64,000 nt of DNA from a virus: positions 64,001 through 128,000 of the IMG/VR virus record IMGVR_UViG_3300027976_000007; one strand, written 5' to 3'. Below, one piece after another: positions 29,655 through 47,633 of this stretch (positions are counted from its first letter, which is position 1; each line of letters starts with the position of its first letter). A model generated the notes under the pieces. The model was given only the letters and a program-made list of their open reading frames with translations. It was not told where the DNA came from and did no database searches. The translations under genes were made by a program, and so were the position numbers.

Positions 29655-31352
29655 TTATAGGGAATTTTTTCTTTTTAGAGGTCTTTTTCTTTCTTCAATA
29701 TTATTATCTTCAATAGTATCACCACTAACTATTTCAGTTGGAGGAGAATAAGAACATCCTGCGGTTTTTTCGTACACTTTAACCATGGTGGCTTTTTTCT
29801 TTTCTAAAAGCTTTATTTCCTTCTCCATCTCCTTGATCTTTTTCTTGTCAACAAGTTCAGATAAACTTTCATCTTCAGAAACCATAGATAATCTTTTACT
29901 TTTTGAATCAATAGCGTGTGATATAGCTTCTATTTGAAATTCTATAGTCGCAATCTTCCCTTGGTTTTCTATCTCCGATAATTTACTATCAAGGGTAGGT
30001 TTTTTCTCTTTTTTAGGTTTAGGGGATGGTTTTTCTCCTAAGGGGAGTTGTTCTTTTATAAGGTTTATCAGTTTTATGTGTTTCATATTTTTTTTACTTT
30101 CTGAGAATTGTCTTCCATCTTCAAATGATGCTACTGTGGATTCAGAATCATACCAATCCTCTACTCTATAATCAATATTACCTTTCCCGTCATCTATTCT
30201 ATTTACATGCTGGGTAACTCTTTCTGATTTTGATATATCTCTTGCTTTGTTAATAGCTCTAGTTTTAAGGTCTTCACCCTCACCAGCATCGAACCCAAAC
30301 CAAACATCATCAGGGAATTCATTAAAATCATCTTGAGTATATTCTCTGCTATCAGCTTCAGGTGGGTTGAAATTATCATTATCATAAGGGGCTTTTAAAG
30401 GTTGTTTATTTGATACCCCTTCCTTCAATTTAACTTTAACCATTTGGTCTGTTTTTGAAGCTTTTAATCCAGGTAAGTCGTCTCTATATCCTAATCCTTT
30501 TACCCCAAATTGACCATCCTTAACATAATGAAGTCTATCTTTAGTTAAGTTTTTAGCTACTATGTCTTTTATTTGTTCAACAGTTTTTTCGGAGTTCTTA
30601 GGATCTTTCATTTCACAATAATAACCTGACAAGAATTCTTGTCCAAAGATATTATCAATGTTTTTTATATCTTTATAATCATATCCTTTAACCTCCATAT
30701 CAATTACTTCTTTGGGGGTTTTCTTCTCTTCAGCTTTAGCTCCTTTTGCTTCTTTTGCTTCTTTTACAAAAGTTCTTCCACATTCTCTTAATCTTTTCAA
30801 TTTATCGTCTATTGAATTTAAAGCATCACCAAATCTGCCAGCGACTTCTCCTCCTTGAGGTTCAGCTTCTTGTTCCATATCTCTAGTAATTTGGGCTCTT
30901 TCATCCTCAAGTTCATATCTTTCTAAACCTTGTTGGGTTTTATCAACATGAAATCCTTTAGAATATTTAGGTTCACCATCTACTTGGTTTTTAAATCTGT
31001 CCCTTGATGTTCTAGCTCTCATTAAAGGGGAATCATTTACATCTTCTATTTCTTTTATTGAACTTTTAGATGTTGCGGCCGATATTTTACGATCCTCAAA
31101 ATCTGAATATTTCTTTTCCTTTTCATTTAATTTAGATTTAAATATAGAAAAGAAATCTGAATCTTCAGATTTAGTATTTTCATGGGAGTGAATTATATTA
31201 TTTCTTTTTAAACTATTTATTGTTTCTTTTATATCCGCCGCATTACGGATAATAGAAGGGAATAGTTTCTTAGCAGTTTTTTTGAAAATTTCAACATTAC
31301 CTTTTCCTTTAAGGATCAAATTATATTGTTCTTGTAAAGTTTTTTGTTTCAT
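29655..31352 (-). CDS. Prohead core/internal head protein
   Basis: Charged protein between portal and protease; repeated (L/I/V)xE linkers; internal MKHIKLINLIKEQ. Confidence 0.55.
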   Translation of the reverse strand: MKQKTLQEQYNLILKGKGNVEIFKKTAKKLFPSIIRNAADIKETINSLKRNNIIHSHENTKSEDSDFFSIFKSKLNEKEKKYSDFEDRKISAATSKSSIKEIEDVNDSPLMRARTSRDRFKNQVDGEPKYSKGFHVDKTQQGLERYELEDERAQITRDMEQEAEPQGGEVAGRFGDALNSIDDKLKRLRECGRTFVKEAKEAKGAKAEEKKTPKEVIDMEVKGYDYKDIKNIDNIFGQEFLSGYYCEMKDPKNSEKTVEQIKDIVAKNLTKDRLHYVKDGQFGVKGLGYRDDLPGLKASKTDQMVKVKLKEGVSNKQPLKAPYDNDNFNPPEADSREYTQDDFNEFPDDVWFGFDAGEGEDLKTRAINKARDISKSERVTQHVNRIDDGKGNIDYRVEDWYDSESTVASFEDGRQFSESKKNMKHIKLINLIKEQLPLGEKPSPKPKKEKKPTLDSKLSEIENQGKIATIEFQIEAISHAIDSKSKRLSMVSEDESLSELVDKKKIKEMEKEIKLLEKKKATMVKVYEKTAGCSYSPPTEIVSGDTIEDNNIEERKRPLKRKNSL

Positions 31353-32212
31353 AGGTTGTTTATTTTAAAAAGCTCTTCCATTAAATTCTGATATTGTAGT
31401 AAATTAACTAAATGGTTATTAGTTATTTTCTCTTTAGAATTAACTTCTTGGAGAAGTTTTGATATTTCTTTTATTTTTATTTTTAATGTTGGGTCTTTAA
31501 CTTTAAATATTTCTTTTTTTAAGGAAGTTTTCAGTTCTAAAATCTCTTTATTATAAAAATCTTTAAGTTTAGAAGAATTATCTACAGATTCTATAAACTC
31601 CCTTAATATTTCTTTTTGTTTAGAGTTTAATGATGAATATTTAGTATTAAATTTCTCTAATAAAACATGGTATGTAAGAATTCTTAAATCTTTATCATAG
31701 GTTCTAAACTCAGACATTACATCGGTTTTGATTTTCCCTTTATTTATTTCTTTGGTAGAAGTAAGATATTCTAGTACTAGTATTTTGTTATCTATTATCT
31801 GAGTGGGGAGAACTTTATTGGAGGTATTGTAGATTTCAAATAAAGTATAAAAGGAAGCTAGTTCCTTATAGTTAGAGATGTTAGACTTAAATAATTCATC
31901 TACATCATAGATTTCCTTCAATTCCTTTATAAGGTTATATTTTTCTTTTCTTAACTTAGTTCTATTGAGACTTTTTGAAGCTTTTAATATAGTATCTATT
32001 ACCGTAGAAGCTTTACCTTCACTAAGGTTTTTATATTTAGATAGTATTTCATATAATTTATATTCCTTACCCAACTCTGTATTAGAGAAGTATTTTTTTA
32101 ATAGAGGAAGGGATTTTGATTTTACCCCTGAGATAGTATCTGATGTTATTTTTTTCGTTAATAACTCAAATAGAATTCCTGTATTTTTAAATTTAGAATG
32201 TTTTATATTCAT
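31349..32212 (-). CDS. Prohead core protein
   Basis: KHSKFKNTGILFELL..EKYNLIKEL..EKFN.KY..L..KQK; directly downstream of portal; preceded by the late motif. Confidence 0.6.
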   Translation of the reverse strand: MNIKHSKFKNTGILFELLTKKITSDTISGVKSKSLPLLKKYFSNTELGKEYKLYEILSKYKNLSEGKASTVIDTILKASKSLNRTKLRKEKYNLIKELKEIYDVDELFKSNISNYKELASFYTLFEIYNTSNKVLPTQIIDNKILVLEYLTSTKEINKGKIKTDVMSEFRTYDKDLRILTYHVLLEKFNTKYSSLNSKQKEILREFIESVDNSSKLKDFYNKEILELKTSLKKEIFKVKDPTLKIKIKEISKLLQEVNSKEKITNNHLVNLLQYQNLMEELFKINNL

Positions 32213-32247
32213 TTCTATAGTTTCTTATAAATATGTAAAAGAGGATG

Positions 32248-34152
32248 TTATTTAATATTAGATTCATCTAAAAGCGGAGACGTATCTTCGGGAGATTCAA
32301 CTAACAAACGAGTTTTTTCTTGAGGGATTAACTCTAAAGTATCCTTGTAAGATAAATAATGGGATGTTTGTGATTCTAAAGCTAATGGAGATCCACCTTT
32401 GGGTTTATATTTTAATGGTGATTTTTCATTATTATAATCATTTTTCATCCCTTTCGAACCTAATCTATCATTCCCAAAATTGTCGGCTTGAGTATTTCGT
32501 TTAGTTTCACTATTCTTAGGTCTACCTAAAGTTTCAGATTTGTTTTCATCATATCCCGGAGGAACGGATCCCGGAACCATTCTTCCTGGACCATACAGAC
32601 TAGCCAGATCATGAGGAGTACCATAAGATTTTCCTGTTTCTAGGGGATCATTACCTTCAGATTCAATTTGAGCCAATCTAAATTTACGATGTGAGTCCTG
32701 CATAATCAAATCTCTATATTCATCATATTGATCCTCACTCAAATGGAAAATATGTTCATAAATAAAGTCAGTAGGGAATAAGTTTTGTTCTATCATGCTA
32801 GCAGCTAACTCTACCTTAGATTTTAATAATTCTATTCTCTCTTGATCATATATTATTGATGGGGTAGTTAATGAAATTTCAAAGTTTCCTAAATTCTCAT
32901 CTCTATATCCTTGCGTGTATAAATGAATAATAGCTATTTTATACAATTCAGAAATAGTTATTCTTTGGATCCTTTCTATTGTTCTAGCGAATCTAATATC
33001 TTGGGCTGCCAATGTAGCTTTACCATCAGTATTTTCATCATATCCCATGAAAGCTTTAGGTACTTTTAAAGCCGCGAATAATTTGTCTCTAAAATATTCT
33101 ACGTCTACTATCCCATCCCATTGCATCCCTTGAGCCGTATCTATTTTTGTTGATGAGTCATTTCCCCTTACGGGGATGTAATAATCTTCTAGTAGGTTTT
33201 GAAGATTGAATCTTAAATTATAATCTCCAGTTTCTGGATTTATATGGGGAGTTCGTTTCATAGTAGAAACTGTTTTTTCCATAAAAGCATCTACCTCATT
33301 TGGAGGGATTGATCCTACATTTAAATAAAATATTCTTTTTTCTGGTGCTCTTACTATCCTATGGATTAACATAGCATCCTCCATTAGTGTATATTGTTTA
33401 AATAATTTTCTTGCAGGTTCTATATAAGAACGGCCATAAGGTAAATAATTAACATCCGCAAGTAGTCTAAAGTGAGCAATTTCGTAATTATCAAATAAAT
33501 TGTCGGTTGAACCATTATCCTTTGAAGGTTTATAGTTATAGGAAGTATTGGGGCCTTCGGGACTATATCTAAATTGAATTTTGGTAGGGTTTTCTCTATC
33601 TCTTCCTTCTAATCTCTCTATATTAAATGCGGTATAAGGTATTACATTATATACTCCAAATTTTTCAGCAATTTCTAATTTTAGGAAAAAGTCTCCATAT
33701 TTACACATATTTCTTATCCAAGGCCATAAATTGAATTCTATGTTTAAAACATCATAGAATAAATTATATAAGATTTTTTGAATATCTTCATCGGTAGATT
33801 TTATTTGTAGCACCTCCCCCATATCATTTTTTAAAGTAGATTCATCTGCTATAATATCTAAAGCAGAAGCTACTATTGCATCTGTATCCATAGAATCATA
33901 ATCTGAATATAGTTGTGTTCTTATATTCTGGTGGTTTTGGTGGAGTTGATTTCCATATATTGAAGTACCATTTCCTGATGTAAATACTTTGTTGAATCTA
34001 TCGATTACAGTATTAGTAGCTACTTGGCCTGATTGTTGTATTTGGTTTATGTCAAATACTTTTAATTGATTTTCCCCATTATTTCTTATGATAACATCAG
34101 TAGAGAATAATCTTCTAAGTCTTGAGAATAAATCTTTTTTTATAGGATCCAT
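32248..34152 (-). CDS. Portal protein (T4 gp20-like)
   Basis: IVASALDIIADE, YGRSYIEPARK, LMEDAMLIHRIVRAPEKRIFY, EDYYIPVRG, LFAALKVPK, DIRFARTIERIQ. Confidence 0.95.
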   Translation of the reverse strand: MDPIKKDLFSRLRRLFSTDVIIRNNGENQLKVFDINQIQQSGQVATNTVIDRFNKVFTSGNGTSIYGNQLHQNHQNIRTQLYSDYDSMDTDAIVASALDIIADESTLKNDMGEVLQIKSTDEDIQKILYNLFYDVLNIEFNLWPWIRNMCKYGDFFLKLEIAEKFGVYNVIPYTAFNIERLEGRDRENPTKIQFRYSPEGPNTSYNYKPSKDNGSTDNLFDNYEIAHFRLLADVNYLPYGRSYIEPARKLFKQYTLMEDAMLIHRIVRAPEKRIFYLNVGSIPPNEVDAFMEKTVSTMKRTPHINPETGDYNLRFNLQNLLEDYYIPVRGNDSSTKIDTAQGMQWDGIVDVEYFRDKLFAALKVPKAFMGYDENTDGKATLAAQDIRFARTIERIQRITISELYKIAIIHLYTQGYRDENLGNFEISLTTPSIIYDQERIELLKSKVELAASMIEQNLFPTDFIYEHIFHLSEDQYDEYRDLIMQDSHRKFRLAQIESEGNDPLETGKSYGTPHDLASLYGPGRMVPGSVPPGYDENKSETLGRPKNSETKRNTQADNFGNDRLGSKGMKNDYNNEKSPLKYKPKGGSPLALESQTSHYLSYKDTLELIPQEKTRLLVESPEDTSPLLDESNIK

Positions 34153-34180
34153 TTTTAATTTTGATTTTAATTTTAGTTTT

Positions 34181-35758
34181 TTATAACAACCATTTAAGGT
34201 CTATATTATGTTCACCTATCTGGGATTTATAGGGGTTTGGGGTATTGGAATTAATAAAACCTCCAGTATATGTGGTTTTATTGGTTCTAATAGAATTTAA
34301 AGTAGCCTTAGCCATATCTAACCCCTGTTGTTGAAATCTTAATGATGTATCTCTTAAAAACATACCTATAGCATAAGATATGACCAAATCATCGTTGTTC
34401 CCCGTTCTAGCTTGAGGCTTCCCATTTTTCCATATAAATACTTTCATTTCACCTAATAATCTTCTAGACCTTATAATAGTGCCTCCATCTTTAACACATT
34501 CGACAAATTTACTTATACATAAAGGACGAGTTCTGGTGGACATTGTAAACCCAGGAACCATATCAGAACTAGAGTCATAGGATCTTAAATAAGATTCAGA
34601 TGTAAGTTTCTCTCCTTTAGGGGAATAGTATAAATTTTTATAATTTAACTCTAATACAGTTTCAATAGTAGCCCAACCTACATTAGCATTTTCTATTACT
34701 AATAAAGCGTTATTATATTCAGTACCTAAAGAAGTTACAAAATGTCCTAACTCTTTAGGGGAAAGTCTTCCCCTATATTCGGCTACTTGGGTATTTGTCT
34801 CTATATCTATAACATGAGCTGCCGAATTATCCTTCCCATCTCCTCGGGCTACATCAACTAATATTATGTAGTCTTTAGAGTAATCAGGATATTCCCATAT
34901 CCACAAATCCTTAGTAGCCCCTCTATATTCTATGGGGTCTTTTATAGTTTCTTTTTCTATTATTTCAAGGAACTCCGCAATGAAAACCGTGTCTCCAGAG
35001 TTATTAAAGTCACAATCACATTCTTGGGCGGCGGTTTTTTCTCCTAACAGATCATCTTGTTCATCTCTCCAAGTTTGGTTTCTTTCAGGATGGACAAACC
35101 AAGGGAGTTTGATGGGTAAAAATTTACCTGTTCCCTTCTTTTGACCTTGTACAGCATCTTCCCACATATCGGAAAACCAATTTCCTATCCCATTTGGGGT
35201 TGATAAAACTATACATCCTCCCCCGGTAGCTAGAGTTTGTTGAGCCGACCCCCAAGTTTCTTCTATATTATCTATAAAAGCAGCCTCATCTATTACTAGT
35301 AGAGATACAGCTTCAGATCGGGCGGAATCGCTGTTTGATGATTTGGCTTGGATTTTGGATCCATTAGATAGTCTAAGGGATAATTTATTGTTTTCTACAG
35401 AGTCTACTTTCAACCATGAAGGAAGGTTTTCCCACATAAATTGAACTTTAGTTACTAAGTTTTTTGCTGTTATTTGTGTAGTTGCTAGGGCCAGTATATT
35501 TTTATCTTTATGGAAAGTCATTAACCATAAACTATAACCTGATATTAGGGTGGAGATTCCTAATTGTCTTGATTTTAAAATAAAAACATAAGGGTTATCT
35601 TTTACTAAATTTAGAGCTTTTTCTTGGAATGGATATAAACCAAACTTAATACGACCCGCTTGAGGATGTTGAATATAGCAGTATTTTTTCATGAAATGGG
35701 TCGGATCTTTCGCACATTTCAAATATTCCTCTCGTATGGCTCTCTTTATATCACTCAT
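34181..35758 (-). CDS. terL: Terminase large subunit (T4 gp17-like)
   Basis: LYPFQ, LKSRQLGIST, LLVIDEAAF, LSTPNG, QECDC, VDVARG.G.D.SA, DDLV. Confidence 0.96.
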   Translation of the reverse strand: MSDIKRAIREEYLKCAKDPTHFMKKYCYIQHPQAGRIKFGLYPFQEKALNLVKDNPYVFILKSRQLGISTLISGYSLWLMTFHKDKNILALATTQITAKNLVTKVQFMWENLPSWLKVDSVENNKLSLRLSNGSKIQAKSSNSDSARSEAVSLLVIDEAAFIDNIEETWGSAQQTLATGGGCIVLSTPNGIGNWFSDMWEDAVQGQKKGTGKFLPIKLPWFVHPERNQTWRDEQDDLLGEKTAAQECDCDFNNSGDTVFIAEFLEIIEKETIKDPIEYRGATKDLWIWEYPDYSKDYIILVDVARGDGKDNSAAHVIDIETNTQVAEYRGRLSPKELGHFVTSLGTEYNNALLVIENANVGWATIETVLELNYKNLYYSPKGEKLTSESYLRSYDSSSDMVPGFTMSTRTRPLCISKFVECVKDGGTIIRSRRLLGEMKVFIWKNGKPQARTGNNDDLVISYAIGMFLRDTSLRFQQQGLDMAKATLNSIRTNKTTYTGGFINSNTPNPYKSQIGEHNIDLKWLL

Positions 35759-35767
35759 AGAGGTTTT

Positions 35768-36685
35768 TTATAGAGAACCTTCTAACTTCTTCTTGGTTTT
35801 GGTTAGATCCTTTAGCTGGTTTAAGTATTTTTCTTTTTTATCCCCTTCAGAACTTTTATATAGTTTAGCTATTTTCTTCATTTTTTCTACCGCAGATTGG
35901 AGTTGTAAAGCGGTATTTGAAGTGGAATCCTTTTTGAAATCTTTCTTTGTTGGTTCTTTTTCGAATTCAGAAGAATCATCATCTTTATCTGCTTTATAAT
36001 AGTTATCTTCTATTTCTTCACCCCCATCGTCTTGGTTTTTCTTTTTCCTACCTTCAAACCTCAAAGCTGTAGCTATTTTCCTCATTTTTTCTACCGCAGA
36101 TTGGAGTTGTAAAGCGGTATTTGAAGTGGAATCCTTTTTGAAATCTTTCTTTGTTGGTTTTTTTTCGAATTCAGAAGAATCATCATCTTTATCTGCTTTA
36201 TAATAGTTATCTTCTATTTCTTCACCCCCATCGTCTTGGTTTTTCTTTTTCCTACCTTCAAACCTCAAAGCTGTACCGGCACCGGCACCCATATCTTGGA
36301 GCAATTTAACAAGTTTGTCTAAGAAAGGTTTGGATTTTTTTCCTGCTCTTACTATAGCTTTTATTAATTCGTTCTCATCCGTTATCTCTGGACCGTGTGT
36401 TTCTTCAATGTTTATATCTTTGGTAATTTTTGAAGTTTTTTCAAGTTCCTTATTTAATTCTTTTTGGTTTATTACTTCTTCTTTGGTAGCTTCTTCTAAA
36501 TCATATTTACCTTCTCCAAATTTACCTTTTATCCTATTCATTATACCCTCTATAGCTGTAAAAGAATCATATGGGCTGTATCCATTACGTATAGCTATTT
36601 TTTGGATAAATTTTATTACTATTTGTTCTAAAGAACCATTAATATTGGATTCTTTGATGGAAGATTTTTTGGAAAGATGTTTCAT
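35768..36685 (-). CDS. Probable internal head protein with a 68-aa duplication
   Basis: Late motif at 36711; SIKES, DLEEA, NIEET linkers; highly charged. Confidence 0.5.
   Translation of the reverse strand: MKHLSKKSSIKESNINGSLEQIVIKFIQKIAIRNGYSPYDSFTAIEGIMNRIKGKFGEGKYDLEEATKEEVINQKELNKELEKTSKITKDINIEETHGPEITDENELIKAIVRAGKKSKPFLDKLVKLLQDMGAGAGTALRFEGRKKKNQDDGGEEIEDNYYKADKDDDSSEFEKKPTKKDFKKDSTSNTALQLQSAVEKMRKIATALRFEGRKKKNQDDGGEEIEDNYYKADKDDDSSEFEKEPTKKDFKKDSTSNTALQLQSAVEKMKKIAKLYKSSEGDKKEKYLNQLKDLTKTKKKLEGSL
35866..36275. repeat. In-frame tandem duplication, 2 x 204 bp, 2 mismatches
   Basis: Direct comparison; K/E and R/K differences. Confidence 0.95.
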
Positions 36686-36719
36686 AGTTTATTGTAAAAA
36701 TTAAAGTTTATTATAAATA

Positions 36720-37250
36720 TTACAGAGAGAGTGCATGTTTAATAGAAGATATTCTATCCTCCATACTTCCTTCTATCTTATAGAAGTTTTTGATTCGGTG
36801 TTTGTATATGTTGATTATCCTTTGGATGCTATGGTCTATTTCTTCCCTATATTCAGCATCAGTTTCCCTGACTCCATTATCTTCTATATTTACCCCTTCA
36901 GGTGAAACATAAAATATATAATCATATTCAGATATGAGATTTTTAGCCATTATACAAAAATCGTCCTTATCATTTGGAGGGATTGATTTGGATAGAAGGG
37001 AAAATGCCATTACATCTATAATAGTTCTATCGGTAATTATGTTTTCTTCAAGAAGTTCCCTTGACCTTTCTGCGGCAAATATTATTTGTCCTTTAAGGGT
37101 TGAGTCTGTATTTAAGGGTATTCCTAAATCCCTTAAATATTTAGATCTTTCTGTTGTGAATTTATAATGAGAAAATTCTGGGAGTGATTTTAATTCATTC
37201 ACCAATGAAGTTTTCCCTACAGAAACTGTTCCACAAAATCCTATTTTCAT
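36720..37250 (-). CDS. P-loop kinase/ATPase, NadR/Ttd14 (AAA_28)-like
   Basis: GTVSVGKT, ITDRTIID, YDYIFYV..IEDNGVR. Confidence 0.75.
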   Translation of the reverse strand: MKIGFCGTVSVGKTSLVNELKSLPEFSHYKFTTERSKYLRDLGIPLNTDSTLKGQIIFAAERSRELLEENIITDRTIIDVMAFSLLSKSIPPNDKDDFCIMAKNLISEYDYIFYVSPEGVNIEDNGVRETDAEYREEIDHSIQRIINIYKHRIKNFYKIEGSMEDRISSIKHALSL

Positions 37251-37253
37251 TAT

Positions 37254-37478
37254 TTATACATTTTGACAATAAATGATAAAGTCATCTATTACTTCTTTAC
37301 CATGAGAATTTAAACCTGTTTTATAGGATTCTAAGGTAAGTATAGAATTTTTAGACTCCAAAAGTAAAGGTTTAATATCTAACAGAATAGATTCGTTTAT
37401 GGATAATTGGTCTAAAGTATCCCCTGAATATGATATGCTATCATTTATATAATCTTCTATATGATCCGAGTATTTCAT
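37254..37478 (-). CDS. Hypothetical protein
   Basis: 74-aa ORF within the operon. Confidence 0.55.
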   Translation of the reverse strand: MKYSDHIEDYINDSISYSGDTLDQLSINESILLDIKPLLLESKNSILTLESYKTGLNSHGKEVIDDFIIYCQNV

Positions 37479-37932: not shown

Positions 37933-37952
37933 ATGTTTTTATTATAAATATA

Positions 37953-38156: not shown

Positions 38157-38167
38157 ACCATATAGAT

Positions 38168-38431: not shown

Positions 38432-38452
38432 ATATACATTTTTGATTATACA

Positions 38453-38484
38453 TAAATATAACATCCTTTCCCCGGGAGGCCAAA
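38453..38484 (-). promoter_or_regulatory. Bacteroidetes-type promoter
   Basis: TTTG-N20-TATATTTA. Confidence 0.7.
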
Positions 38485-38500
38485 CAGGGGGGGAAATTTG

Positions 38501-39853
38501 TTATATATCCTTTAATATTGATTCGGCTGAGTAAATACCTTGGCTCCCACTAACCGTAATACCCCTAGCAGATAAAGCATCACCAACGAAATGAATATTA
38601 GGATATTTAGTTAAGGATAAATCTTTATAGCTGACCAAAGGTTCAGGAGAAAGATATTTGACCTCTGGCATGTATATCCCATAGTCATTCCCTAAGGTTG
38701 GGAATACTTCTTTCATATCTTCTATAAATCCCTCAATGTAAAGGGCATAGTCTCCTAAAGCATCATATAAAGGCTGGATTGAATTAACCACATTACATTT
38801 TAAATATTCCCCTTCTGAATTTTTGGAAGGTTGGCGGTTGTTGTTGGGGGAATAAAATGAACCCATTCCTTTATTTTGGAGAGTTTTTACAGCAGTTCTG
38901 GAATACTCAAAGGGGTTTTCTATGTTTTGAATTTCCATCAATATCCCAAAATTAGTCATATTATTACGATGAGCTTCATCTTTTTTGGCATGTCCATTAT
39001 AAGAATGATCCCCGTATGTTTCTTCTATGGCTATATAAGCTGCGTTGTTGTTCGTACAAAAAGTTCTTAACGAAACTCCTTTATCTTCAAATTTTCTATA
39101 TAATTTGAAATCATAACTAATATCAATTAACTTTTGGAAATGATGTTGAGGTGCCTCAAAACGGATCCCTATTTGTACTGATTTAGGTTCAGTTGGTAGG
39201 TCGTATTTTTCTGCTAATTTTTTTCCAAAGTCTATGCCGGATTTACCTACACCAAATATAAGTGTATCGTATTTTAATATCACATTATTGGCCCATTTCA
39301 TACCTTCGGGTAAGCTCTCACTATCCATTTTTGCTGTTTTAGGATAATATACTTTATTATTTTCAAAATCAATATCCGTTACTTTAGTCTCCCATTCAAA
39401 GTGGACACCTTTTCCAACTAAATAATCATACCAGTTCTTTGCAATTTCAGATAAGTAATCTGTCCCTATATGCCAAACAGGAAATAACCTTAAACCAAAA
39501 TAAGGTTTAATGAAATCAGGTTCTGTTTCTGGGTTTGAACAATGGACTTCTTTAGGGTTAGGGTGGAATCGTTTGAAATTATTTATCACCTGATCCATCA
39601 ATTCCATTGCTTTTTCTTCACCACAATATTTAGATAGTTGACCTCCTATTGAAGTATGATAAGTTAATTTACCATCACTCCAACCTCCAGCTCCTAACAT
39701 ACCTTCCATTACCTCACTAGGTAACCTATCATATGGGCCTTTACCCATATCTATTATGGTTATTAGTTCCCCCGGGTAACCATTATCTATTAATTTAGTG
39801 GCAGCATTGATTCCTGAGACTCCGGCTCCTACAATTACTATTTTTTTATCCAT
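38501..39853 (-). CDS. FAD-dependent oxidoreductase (COG2509-like uncharacterised dehydrogenase)
   Basis: IVIVGAGVSG, GAGGWSDGKL, HIGTD, VQIGIRFE, RTFC.N, NGH, TNFGIL, PEVKY, VGDA..RGI. Confidence 0.85.
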   Translation of the reverse strand: MDKKIVIVGAGVSGINAATKLIDNGYPGELITIIDMGKGPYDRLPSEVMEGMLGAGGWSDGKLTYHTSIGGQLSKYCGEEKAMELMDQVINNFKRFHPNPKEVHCSNPETEPDFIKPYFGLRLFPVWHIGTDYLSEIAKNWYDYLVGKGVHFEWETKVTDIDFENNKVYYPKTAKMDSESLPEGMKWANNVILKYDTLIFGVGKSGIDFGKKLAEKYDLPTEPKSVQIGIRFEAPQHHFQKLIDISYDFKLYRKFEDKGVSLRTFCTNNNAAYIAIEETYGDHSYNGHAKKDEAHRNNMTNFGILMEIQNIENPFEYSRTAVKTLQNKGMGSFYSPNNNRQPSKNSEGEYLKCNVVNSIQPLYDALGDYALYIEGFIEDMKEVFPTLGNDYGIYMPEVKYLSPEPLVSYKDLSLTKYPNIHFVGDALSARGITVSGSQGIYSAESILKDI

Positions 39854-39873
39854 TATTTATTATTTATTATTTA

Positions 39874-39905
39874 TTAATATACGAAAAAAAAATGTGGTCT
39901 CCAAA
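39874..39905 (-). promoter_or_regulatory. Bacteroidetes-type promoter
   Basis: TTTG-N20-TATATTAA. Confidence 0.65.
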
Positions 39906-39915
39906 TTCTGATTTT

Positions 39916-40833
39916 TTATTTTATTATATCTGATATTATGTCTTGTAATATAGTATGAACTTCTTTACCTTTGATTAATGATTTAATTGTATATAATCCC
40001 CCTTTAATATAACTAGCACTTTTAATATATTTTATTCCATCTCCCCCGGCTTGTCCTGCCATCAATAATATTACAATGGCATATAAAACATCAGATATAT
40101 TTTTTTTATATTTTTCATTCTTAGTAAACAAACCAACTACTTTTTTTATTGGGGCCTTAAAGGCTTGTTCATTCTTATGAGTGAAATGTTCTATTTTTTT
40201 AGCGGCCTCTTCCCCCTTTCCAAAATTATGTTTAGCAAATTGGTTTTTAGCAAACTTAGACAGCATATGGGCTACCGTGTTAGATAGAAGAATATAACCT
40301 AAAATTCCTATTAAAGATTCATTAAGATCTTTTTTACCTTCTAATTCTTTTTTGATAGCATCCGCTAATTCATCTCCTAAGTCAGCAAATTCATCTCCTA
40401 AGTCAGCAAATTCATTTTCTCTTTCGAATTGTAGGGGTTGAATTCCATTTATGTTCGAAGGGGTGTGTTTCATATTTTTAACACTTAGGGAACCCCCCTC
40501 AAGGTTAGAAAACATTTCATGTAAACATTTTTTAATTTTATTTTTTTCAAAATCTTTATATGAAGATAAATTTAAATCTCTATTTTCTAAAACTTTTTTA
40601 TTTTTCCCTCCTACATCAAGTAAACCTCTAGAATATAAATATCGTGCTTCATCTATCATTTTTAGATACTCATATTTAGACATATGACCTTTATATGAGG
40701 TTAACGGTAAATTAGCGCCTATATAACGCTTAAGTGTAGGGGTCAATATTATGGGTGAAATCAGATTTTCATTTAAAGAAATCGCATACTTTTTAATGGA
40801 GCAGGGACCACATTTATGATTATTATTGCACAT
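39916..40833 (-). CDS. Probable internal virion protein with two hydrophobic helices
   Basis: Cys-rich N-terminus; LNE/LHE linkers; hydrophobic segments LIGILGYILL and VLYAIVILLMAG; 21-bp tandem duplication at 40367-40415. Confidence 0.5.
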   Translation of the reverse strand: MCNNNHKCGPCSIKKYAISLNENLISPIILTPTLKRYIGANLPLTSYKGHMSKYEYLKMIDEARYLYSRGLLDVGGKNKKVLENRDLNLSSYKDFEKNKIKKCLHEMFSNLEGGSLSVKNMKHTPSNINGIQPLQFERENEFADLGDEFADLGDELADAIKKELEGKKDLNESLIGILGYILLSNTVAHMLSKFAKNQFAKHNFGKGEEAAKKIEHFTHKNEQAFKAPIKKVVGLFTKNEKYKKNISDVLYAIVILLMAGQAGGDGIKYIKSASYIKGGLYTIKSLIKGKEVHTILQDIISDIIK

Positions 40834-40834
40834 A

Positions 40835-41932
40835 TTATTTCATTATTTCTTTATAGGTCAATTCTATCTTATTTCCTGATAAATCTCCTTTAGGGTACAC
40901 CTGCTTTTTAGGAACTACTGTAGCTCTTAAACCTCCAGTAATATTCCTTGTAGAATCATGTCTTATATTTAATAATGGTTCCAAATCATACTCTTCTATA
41001 TCTACCATATTTTCTAACACTTTGGAAACCTCAACATATATTGTATCTCCTTTTAGGGTGAAATCTTGAGGTGAATAGGTTTTATATATAACTACAGAAT
41101 TATCTGACCCGAATATTATTAATTCTTCTTCAGATTCAGGTAAATCCAATACTATTACTCCTGAAACTTTGCTTTTTGTTTCTTTATTATACATAGTATA
41201 TATTCCTTTCTTTTTATTCCCTAACTTATCTAGGAAAGGTTTGAAAGTTAATTGTGGGGCAAATCCTCCATTTTGGATTTTGGTGAATAATGCATTTACT
41301 AATTCTCTATATCTAGAGTCTGAACTTTCCCAGAAACCTGCATTGTCTTTTTTTATTGATATAGGATAATCTTTTTTACCTTTTAATATTATATCTGCTT
41401 TTTTACCTCCTTGAGTATCATAACCCACACTTTCTACTTTATTGATATTTTTAACAGTATAAGTTTTATTTTCCCCTTTAAATTTTATAGTTTTAGGACC
41501 ATCCTCTAAATATTTATTTAATTCATCTACTATGATGTCTTCATTTCCTGTACCCGCAGAAGATCTGCCTTGAGAGTTATCAGGTTTAACTACAAAAGTA
41601 ACGGTTTTATATTTTATGGCTCCTGTTGAAGATCCTGGGGCGTTAGGGTCAAAGTTAAAATCTTTTAATTTAGAGATTTTTTCAATATAATCAAACCTTT
41701 CGGTTCTGGGAACTAATATTTTATATTTCTTAGAAGAAATTTTAGCGAAATTTTCATCCCCAAACCCAATTTTTGATTTTAGAATTTGTATAGCATTATA
41801 CATATCATCTTCTTTTAACATACCTTCTATTAATGAATTAAATAAGTTAATGTCTTCAGGGGATGAGGGGTCTAAATATCCTTTGGGGAATTTATAACCG
41901 TACTTTCGTATTAGTTTTTCTATTATTTCCAT
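40835..41932 (-). CDS. PD-(D/E)XK-type nuclease-like protein with a cleavable-looking N-terminal leader
   Basis: AGTGNE..KKADIIL..PISIKK restriction-like motif; leader ends in MLKE. Confidence 0.55.
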   Translation of the reverse strand: MEIIEKLIRKYGYKFPKGYLDPSSPEDINLFNSLIEGMLKEDDMYNAIQILKSKIGFGDENFAKISSKKYKILVPRTERFDYIEKISKLKDFNFDPNAPGSSTGAIKYKTVTFVVKPDNSQGRSSAGTGNEDIIVDELNKYLEDGPKTIKFKGENKTYTVKNINKVESVGYDTQGGKKADIILKGKKDYPISIKKDNAGFWESSDSRYRELVNALFTKIQNGGFAPQLTFKPFLDKLGNKKKGIYTMYNKETKSKVSGVIVLDLPESEEELIIFGSDNSVVIYKTYSPQDFTLKGDTIYVEVSKVLENMVDIEEYDLEPLLNIRHDSTRNITGGLRATVVPKKQVYPKGDLSGNKIELTYKEIMK

Positions 41933-42771
41933 TAAAACCGCATTCCATCAATAATATTTTCTATTTGATCTTTTAGATCTTCCATATAAGAAATTATATC
42001 TGATTTTTGATCTCCAGCCAAAGCATAGGCGCCTCTTCTGGCGTTTTTGATTTCGTAATCTAACTTAGCTACGGAAGATGTAAAACCCAATAATCCCAAA
42101 TCTTCAAAATATTCTTCTTTCCAACCATCATTTGAATATGATTCCTCTTCAAAGTTATCATCAGGTCCTTGTCCTTTATAGACTTCTAATATTAGTTTTT
42201 TTAGTTTAGATTTTTTCATTTTTGTTTCTTGTATTTCTTCGGGTTCAATATCAAAGTTATCATCAGGTCCTTGTCCCTTATAGACTTCTAATATTAGTTT
42301 TTTTAGTTTAGATTTTTTCATTTTTGTTTCTTGTATTTCTTCGGGTTCAATATCATCGATTTCTACATCTTCTGTTTCTTCAGGTTCATCTAAAGGTTCA
42401 GTTTCTTCTTTTGCCCCATATCTTAATATTCGGGAGATGGCTTCTACCGCTCTATGCTCCTCTGGTAGATTTAATAAATAATATTTTTTACCTTCTATTT
42501 GAGCTATCCAACTTCTACCATTATATACTAAGTAAAAACTTTGATCGTTTTTTAGATTAATTCTAAATGTAGTAGGTTTTGGAGAAACCCAGTCTATAGA
42601 ATCTAGAAAGCTATTAAAATCTAAAGATAACAAATCTACAATTATCTTTTTTAATTCTGGGAATTTAGTTATTTCATCATATTCTATAGAACTGTCATCT
42701 ACCTTTTTTATATCTTTTAAGATAGTAGGGATTATAGATTTGACTTTAGATTTTAATTCTTCCTTGTTCAT
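41932..42771 (-). CDS. Probable internal head protein with a duplicated MKKSKLKKLILE segment
   Basis: PKPTTFRINLKN..W.AQIEGKKYYL domain, acidic linker, 34-aa duplication. Confidence 0.55.
   Translation of the reverse strand: MNKEELKSKVKSIIPTILKDIKKVDDSSIEYDEITKFPELKKIIVDLLSLDFNSFLDSIDWVSPKPTTFRINLKNDQSFYLVYNGRSWIAQIEGKKYYLLNLPEEHRAVEAISRILRYGAKEETEPLDEPEETEDVEIDDIEPEEIQETKMKKSKLKKLILEVYKGQGPDDNFDIEPEEIQETKMKKSKLKKLILEVYKGQGPDDNFEEESYSNDGWKEEYFEDLGLLGFTSSVAKLDYEIKNARRGAYALAGDQKSDIISYMEDLKDQIENIIDGMRF
42149..42355. repeat. In-frame tandem duplication, 2 x 102 bp, 1 synonymous mismatch
   Basis: Direct comparison. Confidence 0.95.
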
Positions 42772-42772
42772 T

Positions 42773-42979
42773 TTATTGTAATAAATCGGTTAGAGACCCT
42801 ATTAGGAGATCTATTTGATTATTTATTTTAGGAGTAGAAAATTTTTCAGATTTGAAGTTTTGTAACCTTATAATCGTTCTATTTACTTCCTCCTTCATTT
42901 CCTTTTTAGGGGAGTCTCTTTTTTCATGTTGGGGGTTCAGAGATTCTCTAATTATATTTTTTAATTCGGATTTTTTTAT
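42773..42979 (-). CDS. 68-aa protein starting at ATA: (M)KKSELKNIIRES...
   Basis: Not in the track. The frame is open from ATA (42979), which overlaps the TAA of the upstream gene, to TAA at 42773, one base before the next ATG. Confidence 0.6.
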   Translation of the reverse strand: MKKSELKNIIRESLNPQHEKRDSPKKEMKEEVNRTIIRLQNFKSEKFSTPKINNQIDLLIGSLTDLLQ

Positions 42980-43131
42980 TTGTGGTTTCTTTTAAAATCA
43001 GCAGATAGTTGCTTTATTTTAGTAGCAGCAGCTCTACACCTTTGTTTTGCAACCGCTGTTGATTTTTCTATTTCTGTTTCTATTAATATGATTTGTTCTT
43101 TAATTCCTTCTAATAATTCTTTAGTTTCCAT
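42976..43131 (-). CDS. Histone H1-like (Hc1-family) small basic protein, 51 aa
   Basis: Not in the track. METKELLEGIKEQIILIETEIEKSTAVAKQRCRAAATKIKQLSADFKRNHK resembles the Bacteroidetes Hc1-like pattern (AA..RAR.A...L..L..EFRK). Confidence 0.6.
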   Translation of the reverse strand: METKELLEGIKEQIILIETEIEKSTAVAKQRCRAAATKIKQLSADFKRNHK

Positions 43132-43156
43132 AATTGTTTTTTATTTTTATAATTGT

Positions 43157-43735
43157 TTATTTTATTATTCCTGCTATTACTTGCATTCTTCTTTTGAAGT
43201 CAGATTCTTGCAGTCTTTCGGATTCGGTGATTTCTCTATTTCTTCTCCTTTCCCTCTCTTTAGCAAAGTCTTCATTTGGATATTCTGTATTTATAAAGGG
43301 GGTTGATTTATTTAATTCATTATCATAAGGGGTATCATCTATATTCAAATTGTCTCTAGGAGATCCTACTTCTTTTACAACATGCTGTCTGGTGAAAAAG
43401 GTTAATGAGTTACCTATTTGTTTAGTTAACTTGTCATCTCCTAATTGCCTAGCTCCTTCTAAAGCGGCTTCTAGATTGTTTTGTATATCACCTGATATTC
43501 CAGAAAGTTCTGTTTCCGCATCTTGGTATATGTGCATTTTGTCACCCCCTCCTTCTAAATCGTAAAAATTCTCTAAATCTTCGATTTCTTCATCATCCTT
43601 GATTTCTTCATCTTCAACTTCTTCTTCCTCTTCCTCTTTATCCTTTTTCTTAGTTTCCATAAGTTTAGAATAAAAAGCTTCCTTAAGGTATGGGGGTTTA
43701 ACTGGTAATTTTTTTACTGTTTTTTTCATTTTCAA
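43157..43735 (-). CDS. Acidic internal head protein with a scaffold-like C-terminal motif
   Basis: Late motif at 43745; YLKE, LMET, VKE, ITE, LQE linkers; ends RRMQVIAGIIK. Confidence 0.55.
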   Translation of the reverse strand: MKMKKTVKKLPVKPPYLKEAFYSKLMETKKKDKEEEEEEVEDEEIKDDEEIEDLENFYDLEGGGDKMHIYQDAETELSGISGDIQNNLEAALEGARQLGDDKLTKQIGNSLTFFTRQHVVKEVGSPRDNLNIDDTPYDNELNKSTPFINTEYPNEDFAKERERRRNREITESERLQESDFKRRMQVIAGIIK

Positions 43736-43766
43736 TTTCGTTTATTATAAATATTAAATCCTACGT

Positions 43767-44066
43767 TTAAGATACATCCATCTCATCTTCATCGGCTTCA
43801 AACCCTTTAGATCTTAAAGAATTTATAATTTCTTCAGAGTTGTATTTGTCCCCTACTCCCCCTTCAACCTCAATCCCTATCCTTTTTAGGAAAGCATTCG
43901 TTTCGTCTTTGTTTAAAGTTTTTCTTTCTCCGTTTTTTAGGTAAAAGTATGCTTTATAAAAACGTGACCCTGGATAAGTATAAGATATCAAGATTCTTTT
44001 GATTTTTATAGCATCCCTTAGAGATAATTCTTCCTTTATTAATTTTTTTAGTTCAAATTTTTTCAT
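43767..44066 (-). CDS. Small protein with N-terminal MKKFELKKLIKEE tag
   Basis: ORF plus the shared tag. Confidence 0.6.
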   Translation of the reverse strand: MKKFELKKLIKEELSLRDAIKIKRILISYTYPGSRFYKAYFYLKNGERKTLNKDETNAFLKRIGIEVEGGVGDKYNSEEIINSLRSKGFEADEDEMDVS

Positions 44067-44623
44067 TTTTTTAATTTTTCTAAGTTTTCTATAGTTTTGT
44101 TAAGACTATCTAATATTTTTTCTTTATCTACCCCACCAATCCAATTTTCTAAATCTCCATTTTCGGAGATGAAGGAATTGGAAGTTTCATTTATTTGTTC
44201 TAAAACCCAATTTTTATATCCTTTAATAAAACCTTCTAAATCAGCATTATGGATATTTTTTTCATATTGAACATATAGACCTGCCTTTTTTAAGTCATGT
44301 TCAAAATCAATAACACAGTCAAAACACATTTTATGTACTTTATAATAATCAGGGTCGAACCTCTTTTTCATCAGGTTAGTACAGTTAGGGCAAAATAAAG
44401 GTGGAATATTTAAGGCCCTTGCCTTATCTAATTTAGTTATGTTTTGTTTTATTCCTTCTTTTATAGTCCATTTCCTTCCATCTTCTTCCCAAATGTCTCC
44501 TTCAGAATAGAATTCTTTTGGTTTACTGTATCCTGAACTTGATCCTGTTTTCTCTTCAGATTTACCTTGGATGAGATTTCTCATCCTTTGAACTTCCTTT
44601 TTATTAAATTCTTTTTTTAACAT
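44063..44623 (-). CDS. Zinc-finger hypothetical protein
   Basis: GDIWEEDGRKWTIKEGIKQN; CPNC..CFDC. Confidence 0.65.
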   Translation of the reverse strand: MLKKEFNKKEVQRMRNLIQGKSEEKTGSSSGYSKPKEFYSEGDIWEEDGRKWTIKEGIKQNITKLDKARALNIPPLFCPNCTNLMKKRFDPDYYKVHKMCFDCVIDFEHDLKKAGLYVQYEKNIHNADLEGFIKGYKNWVLEQINETSNSFISENGDLENWIGGVDKEKILDSLNKTIENLEKLKK

Positions 44624-46839
44624 TATAATCCTAATTCTTTTAATTCCTTAATAGTTTGGGTCGTTGATTTAAATAATATACCAATACCCCCGGCCTTATT
44701 CCAATTTATTATGGTTTCCTCCCTATCATCGATTAATATATCATTGGAGGTTAATTTAGGTTTTATTAAATGTTTTTCCTTAGCAGGTTTCATATTCATT
44801 TTAGGTTTTGAAGGGAAAAGACCTTTGTTAACCCATATATCTAACCAAGCTTTTTTACCTTCTACTGATTGTTCTTTGATAGAAGGAGCAGTAAGAAGTT
44901 CATAATTATATTTAGATACAAACTTAATTAATTTTTTAGCTTCAGGCAGGGGAGGAATTCCTTTCCAGAACACCATTTTATTAGGACCTTCATCTATAAA
45001 ATCCCAAAAAGCTTTAACCCCAAATTCATCTCTATAATCCCCAGGACTTATACCTTGAGATAATTCAGTAAATCTTCCATCAAAATCTGCTATTACCCCA
45101 TCCATATCAACATATATCATAGGGTTATCCAATTTAAAAGATTCAAATAAAGGCAAAGATAAAGATTTAGATCTAGTTCTCCATTTGGAAAGTATTTTAT
45201 CCTTTTGCAAAGAAGTGAGTTCTTGGTCTTCTAGATAAGCATCAATAACATCCTTCATTGGTTTTTTTGATTTTTTAGCTTGAGTATACATCCCATATAA
45301 CATAGCATCTATCTCTGTAGGTAAAGTGAAATATTTCCAATATGGATTTTTTCCTGTTTCTATTTTATCTCTAAGATCATTGTCTTTGTCTAAGTCAAAA
45401 TCTTTGGATGGGGTTTTATTAAGACCATCCTGAGTAAGATGTTCTATTTCATGTCTAAGTATGTCAGAGACTGCATAGGATACTTTTTCCCATATTTGGG
45501 GGAAATCTTCTTTGGGGACTTTAAAAATAAGTTGGATTTTGGCAGGTTTTGAAGCAAATGATCCACCTTCATCATAAAATTCATATGATTTAGTATTTAG
45601 GGATGCTTCTAGATTGAATTTTAACCCTGATTCTTCAACTTTAAATTTTAGTTTAGAAAGTTGATTACCTTCTTCAACATCATACTTCCAACCTTTAATT
45701 ACCTGGTTAGTAAGTTTGGTTACTAGACTATCATATTTACCTTCCTTTAAGTTTATTACTTCGTGGAAAAAAGATATTGCTTTTTCATTCAAACCAAATA
45801 TGTCTTTTGATTCCTTTACATCCCAATTCTTATTAACGGTTTCTAAATCTCCTTTTTCCGTTTGAGATAACAGTTCATCATAGGAAATAGATTCATTTAA
45901 ACTATCAGTCCAATTTCTAAAATTCATATTTCCATTTAAATATGCTTCTTTTTCTAATTCCACTAAACCCTCATCTTCGTTAGTGTTGGTTGTTTGTATA
46001 TTACCTAATCGGTTTTCTAAATCTTGCAAATAATGAATAATCTCATGGGAATAAGATCTAATTAAATCTTTAGGATGTCTTCCTTCAGTATATAAAACTA
46101 TAGTTTGATTTGTAGGATCATAATAAGCAGTTTTTCCAAAGAAATCTTTTGCGTTTTTTACATCTCCATGTTTGAATATAACTTTAGGGAGGGTTTTGAT
46201 TTCTGGATGTTTATTTAAGAACCATTTAGTGAGGGATTTTATTTGGGATTTATAGTCTATCTCTTTAGAGTAAGTAGCATCCTCGTTTAGTTCCTCTAGG
46301 GTTTTGTTATCTAGAATATTAAATATTTCTTCCTTTTCATTCTCAGATAATTCGCTAGGTAAATATTTTGAAAATTCTTCAATACCTTGTTTTAATGCCT
46401 TTCTAGCATTTGATCCGCTCATACTTCCATCTGGGGTTGATATTATCTTGAGAACCATATTAGGGTATTTTGAATCTATATTTTTGGTTCTCTGTTTAAT
46501 ATCCAATTCGTCATCTTCCCTACCCTCTCTACTCCCTATAACAAAATATATTAGGCCTTGGGGGTTGTTTTTTGCTAGTCTTAATATTTCCCCTATAGGG
46601 GCATGGGCGGGGATAAGTTTTACTTTAGAAGGGAGATATTTTAAATATATTTCCCATATTTTTATAGATAATTCTTGAGATATACCACCCCTTTCTCCAC
46701 CCCCAACATAAATTATAAACTCACCAACGTTTGGGAGTGCTTCTAATGCTTTTTTAACTACAGAAAGATGGCCTGCGGTTGGAGGTTTGAAGGACCCTCC
46801 AAAAACTGCTGTAGGGTTCTTTTGAGTTGGTGAAGTCAT
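44623..46839 (-). CDS. Multidomain protein: HxGH-type nucleotidyltransferase + two HExxH domains + HAD 5'(3')-nucleotidase
   Basis: AVFGGSFKPPTAGH and MSGSNAR; SHEIIHYLQ; RHEIEHLTQ..EIDA; IYVDMDGVIADF..LLTAP..LIDDR. Confidence 0.8.
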   Translation of the reverse strand: MTSPTQKNPTAVFGGSFKPPTAGHLSVVKKALEALPNVGEFIIYVGGGERGGISQELSIKIWEIYLKYLPSKVKLIPAHAPIGEILRLAKNNPQGLIYFVIGSREGREDDELDIKQRTKNIDSKYPNMVLKIISTPDGSMSGSNARKALKQGIEEFSKYLPSELSENEKEEIFNILDNKTLEELNEDATYSKEIDYKSQIKSLTKWFLNKHPEIKTLPKVIFKHGDVKNAKDFFGKTAYYDPTNQTIVLYTEGRHPKDLIRSYSHEIIHYLQDLENRLGNIQTTNTNEDEGLVELEKEAYLNGNMNFRNWTDSLNESISYDELLSQTEKGDLETVNKNWDVKESKDIFGLNEKAISFFHEVINLKEGKYDSLVTKLTNQVIKGWKYDVEEGNQLSKLKFKVEESGLKFNLEASLNTKSYEFYDEGGSFASKPAKIQLIFKVPKEDFPQIWEKVSYAVSDILRHEIEHLTQDGLNKTPSKDFDLDKDNDLRDKIETGKNPYWKYFTLPTEIDAMLYGMYTQAKKSKKPMKDVIDAYLEDQELTSLQKDKILSKWRTRSKSLSLPLFESFKLDNPMIYVDMDGVIADFDGRFTELSQGISPGDYRDEFGVKAFWDFIDEGPNKMVFWKGIPPLPEAKKLIKFVSKYNYELLTAPSIKEQSVEGKKAWLDIWVNKGLFPSKPKMNMKPAKEKHLIKPKLTSNDILIDDREETIINWNKAGGIGILFKSTTQTIKELKELGL

Positions 46840-47633
46840 TTTAAAAATTGGTTTATTTTAGATTGGGCTTCTTCTTTTGATACGGAAGAAGCAATTATAT
46901 TTTGAGTTTTGTCTGATTGAAGAAATGATTGGAGATCTTTATTCAGTTTTTCTTTATTCTTTTCGTCTCTTAACTTTTCTTTATCTGTTTTATCCCTCCC
47001 ATCTCGGGGAATGAAGGGGTATATATAATTTTTTAAAATATCTTCTACAGACTTCATAGTTTCTTTTTTTCCTAAATTGGAAACAGACACAAAATTGGAG
47101 AATGATTTTTTATATATAGGAAAGTTTTCTGAAACTTTTAACCATGTTTGGAGGATTGAGGAGGGAACTAAACTCCTATCTTTTCCTTTACTTTTTTCAA
47201 ATCGATTTTGGTTTCTCTTTAGGGATGTTTCTAGGTCTGTATAGACATATAACATCATAACATCATATCCGGATTCTTGAAGTTTATTTTTTAATTCTAA
47301 TGTTGGTTCTGATGATGAAGAGGTTCCGTCTAATATGAAAGACTCCTTGTTTGCTATTATTTTAGGCAATTGTTCTTGTTTGAGTTTTTTTGAAGCATTT
47401 TGCATGGCTTTCATAAATTTACTCCTATCTTTAGCACTGGTATCTTTTTGATTGAGTGAAAAATTTTCTATTTTGGATAAAGCTAAAATATTATCATCAA
47501 CATTTAGTATAGTTAATCCTTTTAAATCCAAATCTTGTAAAATAGAACCTTTTCCTGAACCTGGAGCCCCCGCAAGAATGAGGGCTTTAGGATTGGAAAG
47601 GGATTCTTTTAAAAGCTGAATTAACGATATCAT
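46836..47633 (-). CDS. P-loop kinase (zeta toxin / AAA_33 / Pnk-kinase-like)
   Basis: ILAGAPGSGKG, LNVDD, FILDGT, GYDVMMLYVYTDLETSLKRN..R; leader MISLIQLLKES. Confidence 0.75.
   Translation of the reverse strand: MISLIQLLKESLSNPKALILAGAPGSGKGSILQDLDLKGLTILNVDDNILALSKIENFSLNQKDTSAKDRSKFMKAMQNASKKLKQEQLPKIIANKESFILDGTSSSSEPTLELKNKLQESGYDVMMLYVYTDLETSLKRNQNRFEKSKGKDRSLVPSSILQTWLKVSENFPIYKKSFSNFVSVSNLGKKETMKSVEDILKNYIYPFIPRDGRDKTDKEKLRDEKNKEKLNKDLQSFLQSDKTQNIIASSVSKEEAQSKINQFLK

Follow-up and report, generated by a model that had tools for sequence, protein, structure and literature searches.

What is the function of a short, basic, amphipathic peptide ending in (I/L)-x-E that seems to recur in otherwise unrelated late genes of an uncultured phage? 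The question is raised by a 64,000-nt stretch of DNA (hereafter, the window), corresponding to bases 64001-128000 of a 142,110-bp IMG/VR virus record with a CheckV completeness of 88%, in which an initial annotation listed seven such strings and read them as a tag that loads proteins and enzymes into the phage head. Here we describe a portable N-terminal tag, carried by uncultured T4-like phages of 142-293 kb, that would act as a head-docking propeptide cut by a gp21-type protease; we place the probability of this reading at about one half. The DNA has a G+C content of ~31% and the minus strand holds nearly all window genes. Its major capsid protein (MCP) shares 51% identity with that of Flavobacterium phage vB_FspM_immuto (immuto) and 46% with that of Microcystis phage Mel-JY01, and is more distantly related to the counterparts of Rhodothermus phage RM378 and T4. 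The source is a 142-kb far-T4-like myophage whose host is probably a marine flavobacterium.

A portable N-terminal tag in two forms

The tag comes in two forms, with consensus sequences MDNFDLKKYLxEGxLLKE (class 1) and MKKSELKxxIKEEIxxxLxE (class 2). Both head many genes in 80 related loci fetched with the 565-aa protein encoded in the window (class 2 reading MKKSELKxxIKEEIxxxLSE there), and four tandem genes just outside the window start with the class-1 sequence MDNFDLKKYLVEG[KR]LLKE. When the 1,208 genes within the related loci were scored for the generic pattern hydrophobic-x-x-hydrophobic-hydrophobic-x-E, it was found to start at residue 4 in 29 cases and at residue 6 in 62, with ~3.6 expected per position, an over-representation of 8-17 times. 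Within the genome of the phage itself, 27% of the proteins have an [IL]xE triplet in their first 12 residues, as compared with 15% of internal windows. A pattern scan of IMG/VR that made no use of head genes returned at least 120 stretches. Among the matches listed, to which the counts and class-2 conservation values that follow also refer, no ATG precedes that of the tag within its frame in 80 of 88 cases, and the 71 distinct tagged proteins fall into at least 41 body clusters, one of them an ortholog group of 28 and the others nearly all singletons. The portability proposed in the initial annotation is thus borne out by at least 41 unrelated bodies headed by the tag.

Conservation of the tag has a sharp end. 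At class-2 positions that the search pattern did not force, I14 is conserved in 81%, L18 in 80% and E20 in 64% of the matches, and information content is at background from residue 21 on, conservation ending at L18-x-E20. In class 1 it ends at L-L-K-E18. Several synonymous codons are used at conserved tag positions, which argues for selection on the peptide and not on the DNA, and rules out a DNA-level element such as a promoter or a recombination site.

An example of how the two forms relate is found in L048:9421 and immuto gp095, of class 1 and class 2 respectively, which have a common body (37% identity, E 8e-32) whose alignment begins just after the tags. Since one body bears either form, class 1 and class 2 are interchangeable; two unrelated families were rejected on this ground, and also because the tag at position 44066 of the window scores better with a merged profile. 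The immuto tandem array gp095-gp092 combines both forms, its genes starting with class-2, class-2, MISIYNILKE and class-1 sequences, and immuto is the only cultured tag carrier found.

Bodies behind the tag are almost all ORFans and slightly acidic on average, and Pfam and PHROGs searches on tags and bodies gave sub-threshold matches only, among them DUF7438 on the second internal repeat (E 1.5e-3) and DUF6960 on an array protein. A tblastn search of 50,697 phage records with the 20-residue tags returned no match, the low-complexity filter being the probable cause, and a full-text literature search for tag strings found no paper.

Tagged genes, head genes and the prohead protease

In the window, the head genes follow each other on the minus strand: TerL (34181-35758), the portal protein (32248-34152; phrog_213, E 2e-60), a conserved protein of 287 aa (31349-32212), the modular 565-aa protein (29655-31352), the prohead maturation protease directly downstream of it (29040-29651; T4 gp21 or Peptidase_S77 type, phrog_207, E 9e-57), an acidic scaffold protein at the gp22 position (27910-28842) and the MCP (26249-27877). 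Scaffold homologs come after the protease in relatives as well. The protease N-terminus, MKQLLIE|T, agrees with ...QLLIE|T of T4 gp21, the scaffold protein begins MKRNILE|D, and aligning the MCP to mature T4 gp23* places the propeptide end near ILE51|N or VVE60|N. Given its homology, its own LLIE and the MCP alignment, this protease presumably cuts after hydrophobic-x-Glu. The phage has, as proposed, a tag that ends in the (I/L)-x-E motif of T4 gp21 together with a protease of the gp21 type.

Tagged genes also tend to sit with the head genes of other phages. In the 293-kb record G001, nine of 10 class-2 matches fall in the 14-kb interval from scaffold to TerL, where they flank the protease, and eight of the nine proteins have mutually unrelated bodies. 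L010 has a class-1-tagged gene immediately after the protease. Peptidase_S77 (PF03420) was found in seven of the 10 largest tag-bearing contigs among the matches listed, and in all three of those at least 90% complete.

The motif TATTTATAA has 24 copies on the coding strand and six on the opposite strand, and most copies precede by 12-40 nt the start codon of a sheath, tube, head or neighbouring gene. Minus-strand copies include 43745-43753, 47649-47657, 36711-36719, 32225-32233 and 62902-62910; those ending at 47657, 43753 and 62910 precede a kinase gene, a 190-aa gene and a 105-aa gene, respectively, and the 287-aa gene also has the motif upstream. It resembles T4 TATAAATA and appears to be a late-promoter-like element. 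Among relatives it accompanies 24 of 27 class-2 genes, against 175 of 940 other genes.

We infer from these observations that tagged proteins are docked and cleaved, after which they may be retained in the head and ejected. A portable amphipathic N-terminal helix would dock its protein onto the scaffold core during prohead assembly, and the gp21-type protease would then remove the tag after hydrophobic-x-Glu, much as in the T4 capsid targeting sequence (CTS) and the short propeptides of T4 gp24, gp22, gp67 and gp68. Members or derivatives in the window would be a 99-aa protein at 43767-44066, a start-less frame at 42979 and tagged modules in the 279-aa and 565-aa proteins.

Comparison with T4 and other known systems

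The T4 record has the CTS MKTYQEFIAE on internal proteins IPII and IPIII, to which that of IPI is related, and comparable starts on gp24 (MAKINELLRE), gp22 (MLKEQLIAE), gp67 (MEGLIE), gp68 (MLLIPE) and gp21 (..QLLIE). Residues 4 and 7 of the CTS are responsible for targeting and residues 8 and 10 for processing, gp21 cutting after L/I-x-E (PMC9026906), and T4 internal proteins are diverse outside the CTS (PMC3012670). The tag has the same i, i+3, i+4, i+6 spacing, with residues 6, 9, 10 and 12 in place of T4 residues 4, 7, 8 and 10. Like the CTS it stands at residue 1 of unrelated, fast-changing proteins and ends in hydrophobic-x-Glu, in a phage that also has a gp21-type S77 protease and a scaffold. 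The tag differs in its length, which at 18-20 residues is double that of the CTS, in having a pair of hydrophobic-x-Glu sites and in occurring in two interchangeable forms. In addition, some tags here are internal, within fused modular proteins, the bodies are slightly acidic where a T4 review calls IP-type proteins basic (PMC9026906), and the tag is known from sequence alone. As the resemblance to the CTS is one of spacing only, we regard the tag as an analogue or a very distant relative and not as a member by homology.

Short N-terminal segments ending in hydrophobic-x-Glu are likewise a trait of T4 core proteins and propeptides, gp24 (MAKINELLRE) sharing the register of the kinase start MISLIQLLKE. 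The T4 gene order 20-67-68-21-22-23 can be compared with portal, 287 aa, 565 aa, protease in the window: these two genes, as well as the eight tagged genes of G001, lie between portal and protease or scaffold like gp67 and gp68, and share their acidic composition. The 287-aa protein, [IL]xE-rich with 12 sites observed against six expected, is by position a candidate prohead core protein. Searches of the 287-aa and 565-aa proteins against PHROG and Pfam detected no family and no gp67/gp68 similarity, and both proteins differ from gp67 and gp68 in being larger and modular.

A further parallel is offered by phiKZ, 201phi2-1 and SPN3US, in which many head-internal proteins are cut at short Glu-ending motifs by an S77-related protease (PMC9026906, PMC5694885). 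In that system, by contrast, propeptide regions have several cleavage sites, and the review mentions no single portable N-terminal tag (PMC9026906). The phages described here are not phiKZ-like.

Observations that weigh against a head-docking propeptide

Several observations run counter to the propeptide reading. Tag profiles found nothing significant in the T4 genome (best E 0.03, inside a 488-aa frame), and searches with them of T4, Syn9, S-PM2, HTVC008M, RM378 and Mel-JY01 returned no tags in phages that all have S77 proteases. The tag is thus lineage-limited, and an expectation of such tags in cyanophages was not borne out. Co-occurrence of tag and S77 could simply come from shared ancestry, and a literature search found no virion proteome for any tag-bearing phage, immuto included. 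The late-motif count of 24 in 27 is not independent evidence, because most class-2 genes there belong to one or two ortholog groups next to TerL, and class-1 genes rarely have a late motif of their own. The tag at 44066 has I-K-E12 but LRD where the second L-x-E belongs, and TerL fits the generic pattern through a native helix that aligns with T4 gp17.

Two carriers also weigh against a head propeptide. Among class-2 carriers the most frequent is a conserved protein, charged and helical, whose gene adjoins that of TerL; it might be a small terminase, an idea for which no support was found. The body common to L048:9421-9963 and L082:13178-13753 (immuto gp095) has hydrophobic stretches of membrane-spanning appearance, such as VGVVGIIGLILLSNTVALML, which would be odd inside a head unless the protein works like podovirus ejection proteins. 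Both carriers would suit a portable docking helix for some other partner in late infection (a chaperone, a membrane, a coiled-coil partner or the packaging machinery), with neither cleavage nor capsid loading, as would the heptad-like amphipathic pattern at residues 6, 9/10, 13/14 and 17/18. Such a helix would leave three features unaccounted for, namely the stop of conservation exactly at L-x-E, the agreement in spacing with the T4 CTS and gp24, and the grouping of tagged genes in G001 and L010 around the protease and between portal and scaffold; we consider it unlikely.

In the window, the conserved class-2-tagged gene of relatives has its positional counterpart, with partial homology, in a 305-aa late gene upstream of TerL (35768-36685, minus strand). 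Its tag, MKHLSKKSSIKES, is degenerate and retains I10-K-E12 only.

Tags within the window

All seven strings of the initial annotation were found on the minus strand at the places it gave, and two of them belong to the tag family by profile; of the others, three are best read as relics of fused genes and two fit the generic pattern only. The entire 142-kb genome was scanned in six frames with profiles built from the tags of other phages only. The top two class-2 matches were 42976 (E 2e-4) and 44066 (E 1.4e-3), and the merged class-1 and class-2 profile ranked the four genes of the array that lies beyond the window (E 1e-7 to 1e-11) ahead of 44066 (E 1.2e-5) and 42976 (E 3e-3). MISLIQLLKES, MKTKTFKKIIKEA, MKHIKLINLIKEQ and MKKSKLKKLILEV were not significant in the same scan. 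The first two of these fit the generic pattern only, and in a BLOSUM scan the listed strings scored similarly to random internal segments.

The sole intact canonical tag within the window belongs to the 99-aa ORFan at 43767-44066 (minus strand), which starts with MKKFELKKLIKEE (residues 1-13, 44028-44066) at a true open reading frame (ORF) start. It closes the late-motif operon that begins at the kinase, and its body is homologous to that of immuto gp094, whose start is likewise MKKSQLREIIRKE.

The second profile member is the 68-codon frame (I)KKSELKNIIRES at 42773-42979 (minus strand), which bears a tag (42941-42979) and is without an ATG, GTG or TTG start. The initial annotation had assumed an initial "(M)"; the actual codon is ATA, and it overlaps the stop of 42976-43131 as ATAA, which corresponds to a standard ATGA overlap with one G->A change. 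The frame may be dead, or it may be a tagged gene with a lost or weak start. A programmed frameshift into it was rejected, as there is no slippery site and start loss by G->A in ATGA is simpler. In relatives, its position is held by a gene of 329-674 aa (MLNE+KLTKAEL...).

Two strings lie inside the 279-aa protein (41932-42771, minus strand), a conserved domain of 146 aa fused to a downstream tagged module. MKKSKLKKLILEV occurs at 42283-42321 and again at 42181-42219 because of a 102-bp tandem duplication (42149-42355, 99% identical) that copies the tag together with an acidic linker and looks recent. The orthologs in relatives span residues 1-146 only, and in L068 a separate ORF with MRKLELKQLIKEALLE comes next.

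A similar arrangement is seen in the 565-aa protein, where MKHIKLINLIKEQ begins at residue 423 (30048-30086). From Met423 on, its C-terminal 143 residues align from residue 1 onward to a free-standing 209-aa gene of other phages that starts with MKRSEFRNLIKRE (52% identity, E 4e-26), and the same module is found inside a class-1-tagged 480-aa protein in L032. Such internal tags would be relics of tagged genes that were fused. Met423 is preceded by an A-rich stretch similar to other initiation regions of this phage, which makes internal initiation at this residue possible.

Elsewhere in the 565-aa protein, residues ~147-200 contain a module, DMEQEAEP(Q/E)GGE(V/I)A.R(F/Y)G..LN, that recurs in one array protein outside the window (L001:14597-15013) and in many IMG/VR proteins. 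Relatives of the 565-aa protein are encoded by 333 IMG/VR stretches, several of which match in the DMEQEAEP module region only.

The string MKTKTFKKIIKEA starts a 105-aa ORFan of the baseplate region (62581-62898, minus strand) with a late motif at 62902-62910; a related-locus search detected no relatives of this gene.

Enzymes proposed as cargo

A kinase, a nuclease and a nucleotidyltransferase/nucleotidase protein had been named as tagged cargo. The P-loop kinase (46836-47633, minus strand; Zeta_toxin/AAA_33, adenylate-kinase-like, Pfam Zeta_toxin E 2.5e-17; late motif at 47649-47657) starts with MISLIQLLKE, in the register of the T4 CTS and gp24, with hydrophobic residues 4, 7 and 8 and E10. 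All kinase orthologs retain hydrophobic-hydrophobic-x-E, always equally far from the P-loop, amid residues that vary, and MIS(I/L)..(I/L)LKE is all that the kinase has in common with the unrelated immuto gp093. Against a tag stand the non-significant profile score and the alignment to adenylate kinase 1, which begins at kinase residue 8 and leaves seven residues extra. As the N-terminus partly overlaps a native adenylate kinase segment, the tag status of the kinase is uncertain: this start may belong to the enzyme itself, or it may be a shortened tag of 10 residues.

The other two enzymes are untagged in this phage. The 738-aa nucleotidyltransferase-HExxH-NT5C fusion (44623-46839, minus strand) has neither an N-terminal nor an internal tag, and the PD-(D/E)XK-type exonuclease (47686-48456, minus strand; phrog_298, E 3e-44) is also [IL]xE-poor. 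Six orthologs of the nucleotidyltransferase-NT5C protein have an N-terminal extension of 12-20 residues such as MNKLTKSLLEGLLPE, which is absent from those of this phage and of L079; stand-alone NT5C genes of L079 and immuto have extensions such as MKQKISELLAEG. These extensions are of interest in the sister phages, yet they contradict the cargo claim for this one. A related-locus search with the nucleotidyltransferase-NT5C protein as query gave no relatives by that route.

An enrichment of cleavage sites in the cargo as compared with replication proteins had also been expected. The number of [IL]xE triplets per 100 aa is 5.2 in the scaffold, the highest of the genome, 4.2 in the 287-aa protein, 3.9 in the protease and 2.3 in both the 565-aa and the nucleotidyltransferase-NT5C proteins, the genome mean being 1.56. 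The kinase (0.75) and the exonuclease (0.39) are below both this mean and primase (1.27), and LxE sites said to mark domain boundaries are without statistical support in the density comparison with primase. By the refuting condition that the initial annotation had set, this part of it fails. Neither the nuclease nor the nucleotidyltransferase/nucleotidase protein belongs to the tag system in this phage, for which the idea of an enzyme toolkit is largely unsupported.

How much of the initial list, then, is composition and chance? The genome, at 31% G+C, is rich in K, I, L, E and N, so that MKK... starts and (I/L)xE triplets are frequent, and on this account no tag would be present in the kinase, at 62898 or at the "domain boundary" sites, which is compatible with a propeptide role for the canonical members. 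The non-significant profile and BLOSUM scores of the strings, the low [IL]xE values of kinase and exonuclease, the native helix of TerL and the adenylate kinase 1 alignment from residue 8 are all consistent with it. Chance does not explain the 8-17-fold excess at residues 4 and 6, the four-residue pattern kept by every kinase ortholog, the start MISIYNILKEVIS of the unrelated immuto gp093 or the free-standing tagged counterparts of the internal tags, and as an account of most of the list it seems doubtful. Far less probable is a leader for a modifying enzyme, by a logic like that of ribosomally synthesised and post-translationally modified peptides (RiPPs), which would fit one leader on many unrelated small proteins; in the loci read no radical-SAM or other maturase is consistently beside the tagged genes (no systematic co-occurrence test was made), and what does regularly adjoin and accompany them is the head module, with its S77 protease.

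The kinase and the nucleotidyltransferase-(HExxH)-NT5C gene form an adjacent pair that is conserved in many relatives behind a late-type motif, an unusual timing for enzymes of nucleotide metabolism. Domain fusions differ among phages, from 438 to 1148 aa.

Other leader-like sequences and neighbouring genes

Outside the window, 11 paralogous genes (~86-167 aa; genome 3270-5662 and 8859-10861) start with M(M)TIAEQLK(I/V/M)TEFPF, which includes I-A-E, joined in most copies by a second site, hydrophobic-T-E; they may represent a further N-terminal leader family or ordinary paralogy. A 348-aa late-motif gene (genome 19256-20302; L089:7257-8303, minus strand) has four internal repeats, ISWGGFNLKKYLEDHSEDD, that hold the class-1 core FNLKKYL inside the protein (E 7e-7 for the entire protein against the class-1 profile).

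The class-2-tagged L034:107-739 and L115:8171-8839 continue ...NEGKQVGTLYHFTD. In Pfam, L034:107-739 matched Tox-ART-HYD1 at a sub-threshold E of 6e-4, and it may be a tagged ADP-ribosyltransferase, recalling T4 Alt. In L058:333-1208, L068:5761-6402 and L048:9296-9421 a tag-like start is followed by a CGCGC/CSCGCGGC cysteine cluster, and the homologue of this family in the window (39916-40833) starts MCNNNHKCGPC..., without the leading helix. The window also has an HNH/homing-endonuclease-like gene at 24801-26150 (phrog_3339, E 3e-101), with the capsid gene on one side and a PhoH-like gene on the other.

Implications for the phage group

A portable tag matched to a T4-type protease is plausible but unproven. 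More tentatively, and at odds that we put below even, this undescribed propeptide of 18-20 residues, with its two sites and two forms, might load dozens of unrelated ORFans into the prohead core, including bodies that look membrane-spanning and perhaps others like ADP-ribosyltransferases. Through a 10-residue short form it might also load the conserved kinase and, in sister phages, the nucleotidyltransferase/nucleotidase, the whole being delivered with the DNA as a takeover or anti-defence kit.

If the tag is a capsid-loading signal, the repertoire of injected proteins of an abundant group of marine phages would be readable from sequence alone, and the tagged proteins, nearly all ORFans, would be prime candidates for anti-defence functions. 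The strategy known from T4 would then be old and diversified in tag sequence and length, and flavobacterial phages would offer a natural packaging tag.

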